Source: a virus
Direction: 5' to 3' (one strand)
DNA length: 64,000 nt
Virus genome (UHGV): UHGV-0167591
Positions 2,931 to 59,972 of the stretch are shown here, in pieces (within the stretch, counting starts at the first letter, position 1; each line of letters starts with the position of its first letter). The translations under genes were made by a program, and so were the position numbers. The notes beneath the pieces were generated by a model. The model saw only the letters and a list, made by a program, of their open reading frames with translations, searched no databases and was not told the DNA's origin.

Positions 2931-3881
2931 ATGAATGTTTTTATTGATACAAATCTATATTTGGAATTTTACAGGATGGGTAAAGATAAACTAGATGAGC
3001 TGGATAAAGTATTTGCCTTACATCAATATGGTCGTTTAAAACTTTGGTTACCAGAGCTTTTAGTGAATGAGTTCTGGAGGAATCGTTCTAAAGTTCTCTC
3101 TGAAACCATAAAGGAAATAACAAAAGATTATAAGCCCGCGCTTCCCCAGATTTTTAGGCAACATGAAAAGCATTCACAATTTAATGATAAGGTTATAGAA
3201 GCAGGTAGGTTAAAGAATGAAATTATTACAGATATCCAGAAATTGTTTAAAGAGGAGGCTTTGGCTGCCGATATTGTAATTAAAAGGATTTTTGATGCAG
3301 CATCTAAAATAGAGGCTGATGATGAAACAATAGATAAGGGGAAACTTCGATTTGATCTTGGAAACCCGCCTGGCAAAAATAAATCATATGGTGACGCAGT
3401 TAATTGGGAATGTTTGCTAAAAGCGATACCAGACGGTGAGGATATATATATCATAACTGAAGATGGTGATTATAAAAGTGCCTTTATAAAGGATGATATG
3501 AATGAATATTTGAAGCATGAGTGGAAAAAAAAGAAAAATTCAGAACCACATATCTATTCCCGCTTATCAGAGTTTATAGGCGAGCACTTTCCTCAAGCTA
3601 GTAACTTGGTGGAAATGGAAGTTAATCTCACTATAGATGAATTACGACACTCTGGCAGTTTTGCTACAACACATCGAGTTGTAGCAAAATTATTAAAGCT
3701 CACTCACTTTACACAAGAGCAAATCCTAAAAATAATTGATATTTATTTTGAAAATGATCAGGTTGGTTACATCAAAGATGATGATGATGTGAAACTTCTT
3801 GCCAGAAGACTAATATCATTAGGTGACGAGGATAAAGATCCTGAAGGGATGCTGGAGACATTCCGTGTATTTATTGATTAG
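2931..3881 (+). CDS. PIN-like domain protein (predicted nuclease), 316 aa; candidate defence/abortive-infection gene in the P1 res-mod slot
   Basis: N-terminal MNVFIDTN motif typical of PIN first strand; further acidic motifs (LPELLVNEF, GDAVNWE, IITEDGDY); strong SD GAGGA 8 nt upstream; visibly AT-rich versus flanks. Confidence 0.75.
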   Translation: MNVFIDTNLYLEFYRMGKDKLDELDKVFALHQYGRLKLWLPELLVNEFWRNRSKVLSETIKEITKDYKPALPQIFRQHEKHSQFNDKVIEAGRLKNEIITDIQKLFKEEALAADIVIKRIFDAASKIEADDETIDKGKLRFDLGNPPGKNKSYGDAVNWECLLKAIPDGEDIYIITEDGDYKSAFIKDDMNEYLKHEWKKKKNSEPHIYSRLSEFIGEHFPQASNLVEMEVNLTIDELRHSGSFATTHRVVAKLLKLTHFTQEQILKIIDIYFENDQVGYIKDDDDVKLLARRLISLGDEDKDPEGMLETFRVFID

Positions 3882-3913: not shown

Positions 3914-4555
3914 TTAAAGATAATTATCTTTACCAGTTAATGAACCTTTAGGCACTTTCCGCGCGGCAATTTCATGAGTAGCTTGAATTATATTCACTAG
4001 GGGACTTAGTAACGACGTATCCTGATTGGCCTCAACTTCTCCTGCCATTGACCTGATGTAGTCGGCGCTGGCAACGTTGTTGTATTCCGTCGCAAAGCAA
4101 CATAGTAAGGTCAGAACATGCTCTGTCGTTATTTCGCTCCAGTTGATGTTGAAAAATTCATCGCCTTTTTTATCGTGTTCGGAATCGAAGATGCTTTGGT
4201 GGAGGATGTATTTGCCGGATTCCTTGCGCGGTAACTTGATTGCTTTCTGGCGTTCCAGCTCCTTATAAATCTGCATTGCTTCAATCAGTACCGGTCTGCC
4301 GTTCATGAAGGGATCACGCAACCTTACACGCTGGCCAACTCGACCGGTAATAAAGCTGTTTTCCTCTTCCACCAGCACGATAAAACCCTTTTCCTCTTTT
4401 TCTCGCAATTCGCGCAGCAGCTGGAGTTCCATATCGCGGCGGCGTTCAGGGTAGCTGGTCCGCTCAGCCATTATCAGCTCATTGTTGATCCATGCAGCAG
4501 TCATTGACGCCGGTTTGCCGACGCTCATTGAAACAACGCATATTTTCTTATCCAT
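3914..4555 (-). CDS. Hypothetical protein (213 aa) downstream of ref, in the position of P1 mat
   Basis: ORF on same strand as ref, about 190 bp downstream; ATG at 4555 chosen over upstream GTG at 4582; no recognisable motifs. Confidence 0.55.
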   Translation of the reverse strand: MDKKICVVSMSVGKPASMTAAWINNELIMAERTSYPERRRDMELQLLRELREKEEKGFIVLVEEENSFITGRVGQRVRLRDPFMNGRPVLIEAMQIYKELERQKAIKLPRKESGKYILHQSIFDSEHDKKGDEFFNINWSEITTEHVLTLLCCFATEYNNVASADYIRSMAGEVEANQDTSLLSPLVNIIQATHEIAARKVPKGSLTGKDNYL

Positions 4556-7363: not shown

Positions 7364-7397
7364 ATAACTTCGTATAATGTATGCTATACGAAGTTAT
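7364..7397. other. loxP recombination site (34 bp)
   Basis: Exact ATAACTTCGTATA-ATGTATGC-TATACGAAGTTAT, two 13 bp inverted repeats around 8 bp spacer, about 420 bp upstream of cre. Confidence 0.98.
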
Positions 7398-7440
7398 CAG
7401 GTCAGAAGAGGAGTTTACGTCCAGCTGCGCACAAAAATCA

Positions 7441-42584: not shown

Positions 42585-43007
42585 ATGTCATTCTTTTCTA
42601 CGTTAAAAACAGCTTTGTCTTTGAAGGAGAAACTTGCTGCTACTGGTGTTCTTGTTCTGATTTGCGCACTTGTTGGTGCTGGGTTTGCATGGGAACGTTA
42701 TCAGCTAAAGCAAGCCTTGGAGAAAATTGGCAGTCTTGATCAGGCTGTTAAGGAGCGTGATAAGTCAATAATGGATCTTAACCAGACCATTGAGACGATG
42801 AACAAAGCAGATCAACATTTTCACAGCCAGGAAGTGAAAAATGAATCAGAACAAGCCAAGTATGCTGACAGGCAAATGGAACGAAAAGCAGAAGTTCAGA
42901 AACAACTGGTTGCGGCGGGTAATGTTCGCCAGCGCATTCCTGCTGACACTCAGCGGTTGCTCCGGAAGTCGATCAGCGAATTTAACGCCGACGCCGACAA
43001 AGGTTAA
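42585..43007 (+). CDS. Membrane-anchored coiled-coil protein (i-spanin-like topology), 140 aa
   Basis: N-terminal TM helix (ATGVLVLICALVGAGFAW) followed by coiled-coil; SD GGAGGAAG. Confidence 0.55.
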   Translation: MSFFSTLKTALSLKEKLAATGVLVLICALVGAGFAWERYQLKQALEKIGSLDQAVKERDKSIMDLNQTIETMNKADQHFHSQEVKNESEQAKYADRQMERKAEVQKQLVAAGNVRQRIPADTQRLLRKSISEFNADADKG

Positions 43008-43173
43008 CCACCCTGCCCCCAAAAGTGCATTTATGTGCAGGATGCCGGAGTTTAGCAGTGAATATTTTGATGATCTGCCAGCGTATATCCTCGATACAGA
43101 AACGATGCTGATGGGGATTAACAGGAAGAATCGCAACGTTAATGATTACAACCGCGCTATCAGCGGTAACTAA
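42841..43173 (+). CDS. Lipoprotein encoded in alternative frame overlapping the preceding gene (o-spanin-like arrangement), 110 aa
   Basis: Lipobox LLTLSGC; starts inside 42585-43007 in another frame (SD AGGAAG); extends 166 bp beyond it. Confidence 0.45.
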   Translation: MNQNKPSMLTGKWNEKQKFRNNWLRRVMFASAFLLTLSGCSGSRSANLTPTPTKVNHPAPKSAFMCRMPEFSSEYFDDLPAYILDTETMLMGINRKNRNVNDYNRAISGN

Positions 43174-43184
43174 AAGGGATTTTT

Positions 43185-43577
43185 ATGTCTGATAAAGTAA
43201 CAGTAAAGCAAACTATCAACAAAGCGACTTCAATCTACAAAATTGAGCAAATCACTGTTGGCAAGCCAGGATCTGAACAATTCCGTCATGCTTTCGAACT
43301 TGCCGATCAGCTTGGTTTAAAACATCCAGATTGTATTGAGCATGTATTTCCAACTTATGCTGATGAGCAATGTACTCAAGTGCTTACTGAAGAGGATTTC
43401 TTCAGCACTGAAGAACGAGAAGGTGTTGATCGCTGCATTGGTGTGATTTGTTCTTCAGTGAGTGATGAGTTATTCCCTAATGTGCCTGAATATGGTGGTA
43501 TTGGATACCAGTTCTTGTACGAGGGCGATGAGCTTAAATGCTATGAACATGGCCTTCTCATTGAAAGCGTAGAATAA
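43185..43577 (+). CDS. Hypothetical protein, 130 aa
   Basis: ORF followed by a rho-independent terminator. Confidence 0.5.
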   Translation: MSDKVTVKQTINKATSIYKIEQITVGKPGSEQFRHAFELADQLGLKHPDCIEHVFPTYADEQCTQVLTEEDFFSTEEREGVDRCIGVICSSVSDELFPNVPEYGGIGYQFLYEGDELKCYEHGLLIESVE

Positions 43578-43591
43578 TACGACTCCCTTCC

Positions 43592-43616
43592 AACCGGCTA
43601 CGTTGGCCGGTTTTTC
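43592..43616. terminator. Rho-independent terminator
   Basis: CCGGC-tacgttg-GCCGG followed by TTTTT. Confidence 0.7.
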
Positions 43617-43618
43617 AC

Positions 43619-43700
43619 TTATCCACATTATCCACTGGATAGATCCAATAATTAGACCCATACAGATCCTAATTAGATCCATATAGATCCCTGATCGTTG
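43619..43700. other. Plasmid origin oriR core: tandem DnaA boxes plus GATC heptamer repeats
   Basis: TTATCCACA and TTATCCACT DnaA boxes at 43619-43636, then five GATC-containing heptamers (AGATCCA-like). Confidence 0.85.
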
Positions 43701-43736
43701 CAGGCCGCGCCACGTCTGGCTTAGAAGCCTTTCGCG

Positions 43737-43838
43737 ATGTGTGCTGGAGGGAAAACGATGTGCGCTGGAGGGAAAAAAATGTGTGCTGACGGGTTGCTAA
43801 TGTGTGCTGGCGGGATATAGGATGTGTGCTGACGGGAA
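43737..43838. repeat. incC iterons (five 19 bp RepA-binding repeats)
   Basis: Five direct copies of GATGTGTGCTGGAGGGAAA-like units upstream of repA. Confidence 0.9.
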
Positions 43839-58399: not shown

Positions 58400-58600
58400 C
58401 TGCTACCCGCTGCTAAACAGGTGGCAGGACGTGACGGGGTTAGCAGACTGGCGTTAGTGAAACCAGCAGGCCGAAGCCTCCCCATCACGCCCCACCATAA
58501 TTTGGGCGTAACGCGGTTTTACGGACACAAAAATACCGCAATATCGGATATCTGCGGTTGTCCGCACTAACATTCAGGCTGCTAAACCCGGTCGCAGAAT
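58400..58600 (-). ncRNA. c4: immI leader region expected to encode the c4 antisense RNA (ends not determined)
   Basis: Non-coding interval between the operator and icd; direct repeat GCTGCTAAAC at 58409-58418 and 58578-58587 plus a near-complementary GTTAGCAG block. Confidence 0.35.
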
Positions 58601-58683
58601 TTGCTACGACGGCGGAACTATAAGCCTGAACGATTAAAAGGTCAATATGATGCGAAAAGATAGCATTCGCGACTTAAAAATAC

Positions 58684-58700: not shown

Positions 58701-58796
58701 AATTGTATAGTAAATACACAAATGGATCTAATAACCTCTTTTTTTTAAAGGCGAAAATATGTACCCTAAATGGGTTGTAAGGCAGGTGAGGTTATA

Positions 58797-59444
58797 ATGA
58801 GAAAACTATTATTACCGTTATTATTTATGGCTGGGACTGTTAATGCAGCATCAAGTGTAAAGGAGATTTGTACCGATTATACGAAATACCTTGGGCACGT
58901 TTACGGCTTTGCTGTCAGTCAAGACGAATCCATGCGCAAGAAGTTACTGTCAGATATGAAACGTCTTAAACTTTCTGAAGCGATGGTGCAGCAAGAACTA
59001 TATAAAGTCGCAACCAACGAAAATGCTAAATATCAATATTCTCGCCTATTAAATCCCGACGCAAACGAGATCAATCGAAGCACTTTCGATTATATGGTAA
59101 AGGCATGCGAAACCGCTCCTGATTTTGCTATCCCTAGCTGGGGTGTGCTGGTGGCGAGCAATGCCGTTAATAAAGAAGATGTTGGAAGAAATGGCATTGA
59201 CTCAATCAGAAATGCCCCAGGAATGCGCCATCAAAGCGTGCAGAGTACGCTTGAAGAGCGGGCCAGGGGGCCGGGTACAAACTCCCCAATGGGAAACCTC
59301 TCACCAGAGGAATTGCAAGAGTATAACCAACGGATGGAGCAGTATGAGAAAGCGGCACGCGAACAAATGGAACAACAAAAGAACGGCTCACTTAATACCT
59401 TCCAGCAAGGTTTAAAGGCGCTTAATTTACCATATGAATGGTGA
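58797..59444 (+). CDS. Secreted protein with signal peptide, about 215 aa
   Basis: MRKLLLPLLFMAGTVNAASS signal peptide; ATG preceded by GGTGAGG. Confidence 0.55.
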   Translation: MRKLLLPLLFMAGTVNAASSVKEICTDYTKYLGHVYGFAVSQDESMRKKLLSDMKRLKLSEAMVQQELYKVATNENAKYQYSRLLNPDANEINRSTFDYMVKACETAPDFAIPSWGVLVASNAVNKEDVGRNGIDSIRNAPGMRHQSVQSTLEERARGPGTNSPMGNLSPEELQEYNQRMEQYEKAAREQMEQQKNGSLNTFQQGLKALNLPYEW

Positions 59445-59495: not shown

Positions 59496-59972
59496 ATGCA
59501 CATCAAACGATTTTTTCTAATTCTTGCTTTGCTTACTCCTTTTTCGTCAATGGCAAATGTAAGCAAATGGTCAACCAGCGAGACTCATGGTGTTCGTTCT
59601 TATGCTGTTTCCAGCAAAGATAATTATACGCTTACATTTGAGTGCGATGTTGGATTTAATAATACGGATCCCAATCAAGTAGGAACACGACTACTCACTC
59701 TCATGAAAACAGAACCTGGCGGTGAGTCATTTGATGCTAAAAAAGAACAAATAACGCTGAAAGTTGGTGATGATGAATATCCTATCAGTTCTATCGGTTC
59801 CTCTGTGGGTGATAGTTACTGGTATGGTTTCTGGTCAGATACCCCTGATATGGAAGTTAAAACATTCGATGCATACGTAGACGGAAAAAAAATCGCAACA
59901 TTTACGCTACGTAAGGCCGCAGAGCTTTTCAACGCGGCACCTAAAGATGGCTGCCTGAAGCGCGCAAAATGA
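59496..59972 (+). CDS. Secreted protein with signal peptide, 158 aa
   Basis: MHIKRFFLILALLTPFSSMA signal peptide; SD AGGAG. Confidence 0.55.
   Translation: MHIKRFFLILALLTPFSSMANVSKWSTSETHGVRSYAVSSKDNYTLTFECDVGFNNTDPNQVGTRLLTLMKTEPGGESFDAKKEQITLKVGDDEYPISSIGSSVGDSYWYGFWSDTPDMEVKTFDAYVDGKKIATFTLRKAAELFNAAPKDGCLKRAK

Follow-up and report, generated by a model that had tools for sequence, protein, structure and literature searches.

Two overlapping genes, ppfA and mlp, very probably encode the two-component spanin of a P1-like phage-plasmid, a pair of proteins predicted to disrupt the outer membrane in the last step of lysis. The genes were analyzed in a stretch of 64,000 nucleotides (nt) of the UHGV virus genome UHGV-0167591, hereafter the window, and coordinates are positions in it. 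Sequence comparison places the window among the P1-like phage-plasmids and identifies the two open reading frames (ORFs) as ppfA (gp064) and mlp (gp063) of phage P1. PpfA is the predicted inner-membrane component (i-spanin) and Mlp the predicted outer-membrane component (o-spanin). A preliminary description of the window had recognized an Rz/Rz1-type spanin pair in an unusual place, in agreement with the prior conclusion of the field (PMC9025707, PMC6139136, and RefSeq and GenBank labels). The gene pair, its spanin assignment and its unlinked position are already known from the literature since 2007 and from RefSeq annotation, and the identification adds nothing new. The features of the pair are as follows (aa, amino acids).

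42574..42579, + strand: Shine-Dalgarno (SD) sequence AGGAGG of ppfA, invariant in the six-lineage alignment
42585..43007, + strand: ppfA (P1 gp064), start ATG 42585, stop 43007, 140 aa; predicted i-spanin, type II inner-membrane protein
42633..42692, + strand: N-terminal transmembrane segment of PpfA, about residues 17-36, Kyte-Doolittle maximum 2.35 over LAATGVLVLICALVGAGFA
42829..42834, + strand: SD sequence AGGAAG of mlp, 6 nt ahead of ATG 42841; AGGAGG in diverged lineages
42841..43173, + strand: mlp (P1 gp063), start ATG 42841, stop 43173, 110 aa, +1 frame; predicted o-spanin, outer-membrane lipoprotein precursor
42841..43007, + strand: region of 167 nt read in two frames, ppfA and mlp (+1)
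42910..42960, + strand: signal peptide core of Mlp with the lipobox (residues 24-40, LRRVMFASAFLLTLSGC); the first invariant column is A30

Architecture of PpfA and Mlp

PpfA has the properties of an i-spanin, namely a small type II inner-membrane protein with a single N-terminal transmembrane domain (TMD) and a largely helical periplasmic domain. The 19-residue Kyte-Doolittle maximum is 2.35 at residues 17-35, which bears out the N-terminal transmembrane helix that had been described for the 140 aa protein, and the hydrophobic N-terminal segment is retained in all relatives. Charged residues make up 35% of the periplasmic domain, which contains no cysteine. An AlphaFold2 model built from a nine-sequence alignment (mean pLDDT 76) consists of a helix from residue 3 to 110, a loop from 111 to 119 and a second helix from 120 to 139, and so resembles the i-spanin fold of TMD, long helix, loop and second helix. 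The body of PpfA had also been described as a coiled coil. Its helical nature agrees with the model, but the coiled coil is only partly backed, because the 3.5-residue (heptad) hydrophobic periodicity is weak (p about 0.04 in the window sequence) and non-significant in most relatives. "Long helical body" is therefore the safer wording.

Mlp has the properties of an o-spanin. As had been claimed, mlp has its own SD sequence AGGAAG and a lipobox LLTLSGC, starts inside ppfA in another frame and extends past the ppfA stop, by 166 nt; the coordinates and frames are all confirmed. All aligned lineages have a CAGGA(A/G)G motif followed after 6-9 nt by an ATG. The lipobox occupies residues 34-40, with the codon of Cys40 at 42958-42960 and Ser41 at position +2, so that Mlp is a small lipoprotein with a lipobox and cysteine and with no Asp at +2; the caveat is a signal peptide of 39 aa if the first ATG is used. 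Mature Mlp comprises 71 aa from Cys40 and contains six prolines, a proline-rich stretch, one further cysteine and a conserved C-terminal half. The AlphaFold2 model of Mlp is unreliable (pLDDT 55). In the relatives, the lipobox reads L(T/I)L(S/N)(G/A)C throughout, the lipidated cysteine is invariant, Ser stands at +2 in all, and the mature protein has 70-72 aa with a proline-rich stretch. Spanin genes may be embedded, overlapped or separated, with the o-spanin gene downstream of or inside its partner. The present arrangement is the overlapped one, and it is retained in all relatives.

Identity and previous annotation of the pair

The DNA of the interval is 96.8% identical to that of phage P1 (NC_005856 62827-64227, minus strand) and 95.9% identical to that of P7. 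PpfA and Mlp are 97% and 98% identical to their P1 counterparts, respectively, and each has the same length as its counterpart (140 and 110 aa); the overlap and the neighbors upfB, upfA and oriR/repA are the same as well. They differ from them by the substitutions H39Y, I45L, E76D and E128K in PpfA and L17Q and V32A in Mlp. Together with the synteny of upfC, upfB, ppfA, mlp, a variable gene and repA, this near-identity places the two proteins in the P1 PpfA and Mlp orthologue groups. In the P1 annotation, the gene order is upfC, upfB, ppfA (gp064), mlp (gp063), upfA, followed by oriR, repA, incA, parA and parB. The change E128K (GAG to AAG, window 42966) is unique to the window among the sequences compared, the relatives having E or Q at this position, and it leaves the amino acid in the overlapping mlp frame unchanged (GGG to GGA).

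The RefSeq label of mlp is "Rz-like spanin", and several GenBank records of P1-like phages carry Rz/Rz1 labels on the pair. In PHROGs, PpfA matches phrog_89 'Rz-like spanin' (E=1e-23) and Mlp matches phrog_30284 (E=3e-77), with all 110 positions covered. Bednarek et al. (2022, PMC9025707) described the P1 spanin genes ppfA and mlp as partly overlapping and as lying in 'yet another unlinked operon'. The Introduction of that paper has the labels swapped, with ppfA as the o-spanin and mlp as the i-spanin gene; the sequences have the TMD in PpfA and the lipobox in Mlp. Kongari et al. (2018, PMC6139136) listed P1 gp064/gp063 and P7 Upf62.7/Upf62.4 in their Table S1 as an overlapped ('ovl') two-component spanin of family "P1". 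Their notes on the pair record a "too long signal sequence" (39 aa), a LipoP cleavage site at 39, and a single periplasmic cysteine in the o-spanin compared with none in the i-spanin. In a survey of 77 P1-like phage-plasmids, mlp and ppfA were among 21 extremely conserved genes (PMC9603915). Experimental work on the P1 spanins was not found in the literature.

Conservation and purifying selection on both frames

Relatives were collected at three distances: 80 P1-like loci of IMG/VR, five lineages (from Cronobacter, Salmonella, Klebsiella and metagenomes) whose proteins are about 60% identical, and one 94-kb element, L090. Both ORFs are intact in 80 of the 80 IMG/VR loci, with PpfA at 140 aa throughout and the lipoprotein at 110 aa in 79 loci and 118 aa in one; three of the 80 have the lipobox variant LLILSGC. 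Both ORFs are likewise retained in all six diverged lineages, where the +1-frame ORF has 109-111 aa, and they are kept in L090 even though its proteins are only 29% (PpfA) and 47% (Mlp) identical to those of the window. In every diverged lineage, Mlp has the lipobox with Ser at +2, a second invariant cysteine (Cys66) and the motifs AFMC.MP, DDLP.Y and INRKN.N. The lipoprotein ORF, its lipobox and its mature domain are thus kept in every relative examined; a failure of conservation, which the preliminary description had named as grounds for rejecting the pair, is not seen.

The mean pairwise diversity per codon position in six lineages, with positions counted in the ppfA frame, is as follows.

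ppfA-only segment: positions 1/2/3 = 0.19 / 0.15 / 0.41; ppfA frame constrained
mlp codons 2-23 (42844-42909): positions 1/2/3 = 0.17 / 0.12 / 0.42; the ppfA-only pattern
42910-43004: positions 1/2/3 = 0.12 / 0.08 / 0.16; all three depressed, both frames constrained
mlp-only segment past the ppfA stop: positions 1/2/3 = 0.41 / 0.16 / 0.12; high value on mlp position 3

This pattern is decisive and shows that ppfA and mlp are both under purifying selection, and that selection on mlp begins only at about codon 24.

The same data bear on the explanation that the +1-frame ORF is an untranslated open frame that arose by chance within and beyond a real gene. ORFs of 90-116 aa in alternative and antisense frames do occur at the locus and are not conserved (the antisense and +2-frame ORFs were checked), and because these are of similar size, ORF length alone proves little. 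Many gene callers, moreover, omit mlp or give a fragment of 45-52 aa. However, variation past the ppfA stop falls on position 3 of the mlp codons (0.41 against 0.16 and 0.12) and the overlap is doubly constrained. In addition, the ORF, the lipobox, Cys66 and the C-terminal motifs are conserved down to 47% identity, and mlp is intact in every one of the 80 loci. We regard a chance origin as already refuted by this conservation pattern and give it next to no probability.

Where mlp is not missed by gene callers altogether, it is often reduced to a 3' fragment of 45-52 aa that starts at the internal Met of MCRMPEF. Such truncated calls lie at 43033-43173 in the window and, in the relatives, at 2228-2368 (L002), 3958-4092 (L003), 3431-3589 (L004), 3449-3589 (L007) and 3049-3186 (L008); 'Rz1' in MH422554, gene_24 in JK004 and Logan calls are further examples. 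The family phrog_15803 'lipoprotein', which has 46 positions and lacks a lipobox, appears to be the truncated mlp product. The miscalling has thus propagated into a PHROG family, and pointing it out is of modest practical value.

Relation to known spanins

PpfA belongs to a small family that is, in the sequence searches made, confined to P1-like elements. An exhaustive HMMER search of 1.8 billion representatives and a word-indexed protein search found no homologue in a canonical lysis cassette; they gave only P1-like relatives, a few short full-length relatives (P0102, P0108 and P0122) and coiled-coil noise. A locus search with the PpfA alignment returned near-identical P1-like contigs only, and a search with P0108 returned no viral locus.

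A remote relationship of PpfA to LysB of phage P2 is nevertheless likely. Alignments of LysB and LysC were built from nine P2-like phages with holin-endolysin-lysA-lysB-lysC cassettes. The PpfA profile matches the LysB profile with 94% probability (E=1.8e-7 at full length), and with the TMDs removed P is 7e-5, compared with 0.05-0.7 for six unrelated i-spanins. The segment IPADTQRLL of PpfA aligns with LPDDVxRL of LysB, the two proteins having a common (I/L)P(A/D)D(T/V)xRL motif near the C-terminus. The relationship of Mlp to P2 LysC is unproven. In hhalign comparisons Mlp matches P2 LysC alone at 90% and the LysC profile at 39%. Homology is not claimed, since the single-sequence match weakens with the family profile and without the signal peptide. 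The likeness of Mlp to LysC rests mostly on the signal peptide, the lipobox and the proline-rich stretch.

In architecture the pair resembles P2 LysB/LysC, the prototype of the overlapped spanins. The P2 i-spanin has about 140 aa with an N-terminal TMD, and LysC, like Mlp, is a lipoprotein that starts inside the i-spanin gene in another frame and ends past its stop. However, lysB and lysC belong to the lysis cassette, where they come behind the holin, endolysin and lysA genes, whereas ppfA and mlp follow baseplate genes and are not linked to the other lysis genes. LysC has four and LysB two periplasmic cysteines, compared with one in Mlp and none in PpfA, and the signal peptide of LysC has 20 aa compared with 39 aa for Mlp.

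The experimentally characterized Rz/Rz1 pair of phage lambda likewise combines a type II inner-membrane helical protein with an outer-membrane lipoprotein encoded in the +1 frame, and PpfA/Mlp is presumed to share with it the disruption of the outer membrane after wall degradation. Rz1 lies entirely within Rz, in contrast to mlp, whose overlap is limited to the 3' part of ppfA, and the lambda spanin genes are within the lysis cassette. Sequence similarity to lambda-type Rz/Rz1 was found neither with Pfam nor with hhalign against P22 Rz/Rz1 (P=0.26 and 0.04). PseT.3/PseT.2 of T4 (separated) and gp11 of T1 (unimolecular) belong to the same functional class. The T4 genes do not overlap and the T1 spanin is a single polypeptide. 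The T4 spanin genes, too, are reportedly not adjacent to the endolysin and holin genes of that phage.

Operon organization and genomic context

The pair appears to belong to a transcription unit with virion genes, upfC-upfB-ppfA-mlp-upfA, that merely abuts the plasmid replicon. Its other features are as follows.

41464..41748, + strand: upfC, first gene of the operon, PAAR-type spike-tip protein (Pfam PAAR_motif, E=1.1e-5; phrog_281; P1 annotation)
41757..42545, + strand: upfB, baseplate 'tripod' protein; phrog_1559 covers residues 20-281; likely start at the Met of MLEKDYQL
43185..43577, + strand: upfA, last gene of the operon, in a variable slot; phrog_1453
43592..43617, + strand: terminator-like hairpin with a GC-rich 9-bp stem (43592-43612) and a U run, directly ahead of the oriR DnaA boxes

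Membership in this unit is indicated by the tight gene packing, with gaps of 39 nt and 11 nt flanking the ppfA-mlp pair, and by the hairpin after upfA (RNA fold -12.8 kcal/mol, z = -2.8). The order upfC-upfB-ppfA-mlp-(variable gene)-repA-parA is found in all relatives. In a cryo-EM study (2026, PMC12810830), UpfC is the PAAR-like spike tip of the P1 baseplate, like T4 gp5.4, and UpfB forms a trimeric "tripod" of the baseplate; PpfA and Mlp are both absent from the proteins listed there as identified in the virion density maps.

The pair had been described as lying beside the plasmid replicon rather than with lysis genes. This holds, but upfA and the terminator-like hairpin separate mlp from oriR (placed from the P1 annotation) and repA. 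The usual location of spanin genes, in or next to a lysis cassette, is not obligatory and is not found here: in a related annotated P1 record, the 20 kb to each side of the pair carry no annotated lysozyme or holin gene. Because the first two genes of the operon encode baseplate proteins, the puzzle of the location is partly resolved, and membership in a baseplate operon reasonably accounts for how the pair could be expressed late while unlinked to the other lysis genes. A generic sigma-70 scan gave no excess over the shuffled expectation.

The start of upfB called mechanically and annotated in P1 (41700) overlaps upfC by 49 nt. Diverged relatives start at MLEKDYQL or MLDKDYQL (41757), and since the PHROG profile begins there as well, the annotated start is suggested to be too far upstream.

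The slot between mlp and oriR/repA (window 43174-43800; also seen in L004-L008 and at 8608-10795 of L090) varies among P1-like elements. In the window upfA occupies it, whereas L004 and L007 carry a Gp49-like gene there, L005 and L006 have no gene in this place, and L090 has about 2 kb of function-unassigned ORFs. Cargo genes, too, stand in place of upfA among the relatives. The blaCTX-M-55 insertion of phage JL22 is located in upfA (PMC9603915). The slot looks like a preferred cargo site.

Proposed function in lysis

As the predicted i-spanin, PpfA would be inserted into the inner membrane by its N-terminal helix, with a mostly helical domain of about 100 residues extending into the periplasm. 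Mlp would be exported and lipidated on Cys40. Because Ser and not Asp stands at +2, its expected destination is the inner leaflet of the outer membrane. If the pair works like lambda Rz/Rz1 and P2 LysB/LysC, PpfA and Mlp would then bind each other through their periplasmic ends and form a complex that bridges the periplasm. The peptidoglycan mesh would restrain this complex until the SAR-endolysin Lyz of P1 degrades the wall, and the freed complex would fuse or disrupt the outer membrane as the last step of lysis. Co-transcription with upfC and upfB would give a late supply of the pair although it is unlinked to lyz and lydA/lydB.

Several points weigh against this assignment. Pfam gave no informative match for PpfA or Mlp, and the lambda Rz/Rz1 models PF03245 and PF06085 were unmatched at E up to 0.1. 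PpfA scores 17.7 bits (E=0.003) against NCBIfam TIGR03495 (P2 LysB), far below the cut-off of 92.75, and Mlp scores 14.4 bits (E=0.033) against NF038368 (P2 LysC / P2_Rz1), below the cut-off of 27. These sub-threshold matches do join each partner to its matching P2 model, and the scores are 21.3 bits for the distant PpfA relative P0102 and 19.2 bits for the Mlp homologue of L090. Once the signal peptide and lipobox are removed, the similarity of the mature parts of Mlp and LysC is largely lost and is not significant (P=0.019). The PHROG labels are partly circular: phrog_30284 matches Mlp over the full length and so is probably the P1 Mlp family itself, which means that its label is not independent evidence. 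According to PMC9025707, Summer et al. (2007) recognized the two genes as spanin genes by their predicted features, without experimental verification. The 39-aa signal peptide that follows from the conserved ATG was flagged as too long (Kongari 2018, PMC6139136). In a genome-wide CRISPR interference (CRISPRi) study, the efficiency of plating (EOP) was 0.24 and 0.19 for mlp and 1.3 and 1.2 for ppfA, and both genes were non-essential for plaques, whereas lambda Rz was scored as essential in the same study (PMC10695390). A scan with the -22 box and -10 of LP23 (AAGTGACTT N4 TAAAAT) found no motif match to a late promoter upstream of upfC; the motif comes from this one annotated example, which makes the negative evidence weak. 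Finally, PpfA lacks a periplasmic cysteine, unlike lambda Rz, whose periplasmic cysteines form intermolecular disulfides.

The CRISPRi result does not contradict a spanin role, because the defects of lambda spanin mutants are conditional; such mutants reportedly form plaques under ordinary laboratory conditions.

The non-essentiality of both genes for plaques, the unverified spanin function, the position beside the plasmid maintenance region, apart from lyz and lydAB, and the sigma-70 promoters P1ppfA and P2ppfA that the P1 annotation predicts just upstream would also fit envelope proteins with a role outside lysis. Such a role might be superinfection exclusion or receptor masking by proteins expressed from the prophage, as with T5 Llp or Cor, or, given the synteny with the spike-tip and baseplate genes upfC and upfB in every relative, tail-tip assembly or DNA entry. 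However, a type II membrane protein and an outer-membrane lipoprotein overlapping in the +1 frame are the defining arrangement of spanins, PpfA is similar in profile to P2 LysB and not to control proteins, and neither protein is among those listed in the virion maps (PMC12810830). Non-essentiality is what would be expected of a spanin if lambda is a guide. We consider a non-lysis role very unlikely and retain the spanin assignment. P1 being a workhorse phage, a simple genetic test of the predicted role of PpfA and Mlp is worth doing.

Start codon of mlp

The annotated start of mlp, ATG 42841, is favored because the SD sequence and ATG at codon 1 are conserved everywhere, whereas the internal candidates vary in position and have no SD sequence. 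The sole start signal common to all lineages is this ATG preceded by a strong SD sequence, AGGAAG in the window and AGGAGG in other lineages. Initiation at this codon would give an Mlp precursor with an n-region of 21-26 residues that is basic (6-8 K+R) yet unconstrained in sequence across lineages.

Alternatively, Mlp of the same spanin pair may be started internally, near codon 24-28 (TTG 42910 or ATG 42922), or from two starts. This would yield an ordinary signal peptide of 13-17 residues and leave the first 23 annotated codons outside the protein, or in use by one of two starts. The absence of constraint on codons 2-23 in the mlp frame (0.17/0.12/0.42) and the beginning of the invariant columns at residue 30 fit such a start. 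The candidate codon is an ATG 16-17 codons ahead of the cysteine in three lineages and a GTG in two; in P1 the candidates are TTG24 and ATG28. The peptide that starts from TTG24 (as fMet), MRRVMFASAFLLTLSGC, is a textbook lipoprotein signal, and the P2 LysC signal peptide aligns with residues 27-40 of Mlp. A different start was also suspected by Kongari et al. (2018, PMC6139136). However, no start signal other than the SD sequence and ATG at codon 1 is shared by all lineages. In JK004, L008 and L090, codon 1 is the only in-frame ATG ahead of the lipobox, the internal candidates differ in codon as well as in position, and some close relatives have GTG in place of ATG28. Every lineage has a basic extension (6-8 K+R compared with 0-1 D+E), although this may be a by-product of the ppfA frame. 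An internal or second start is thus possible but rather doubtful, and we keep to ATG 42841.

A further suggestion, which we think unlikely, is that the first 23 or so codons of mlp encode a translated, sequence-unconstrained and strongly basic extension of the signal peptide, or form part of a dual start, that gates or slows the export of the o-spanin. If so, the extension or dual start would tune the timing of outer-membrane disruption, loosely like the dual-start holin/antiholin pairs, and the coupling of the pair to a baseplate operon instead of to the lysis genes would belong to that timing.

Other features of the window

The ORFs at 58770-59444 and 59496-59972 (+ strand) encode proteins with ordinary Sec-type signal peptides and no lipobox, and were rejected on these grounds as a rival spanin pair; they are probably the sim superinfection-exclusion region. 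The notes of Kongari et al. (2018, PMC6139136) give a second candidate pair for P7, Upf50.0/50.5, which may match these ORFs.

The late-promoter motif scan also met a loxP-like sequence (ATAACTTCGTATAATGTATGCTATACGA...) at 7365-7398, which is consistent with a window that spans the lox-cre end of a circular P1-like prophage. At 58417-58502 and 58571-58623 on the - strand, Rfam identified the C4 antisense RNA, with 70 bits, and the a1/b1 element that it targets, with 55.5 bits; this region is the immI region of P1. Three tRNA genes lie on the - strand at 35472-35547, 36980-37055 and 37058-37133, with the anticodons CAT, TGT and GTT. The tRNA with anticodon CAT may, we assume, be the P1 tRNA-Ile read after lysidine modification and not a tRNA-Met.

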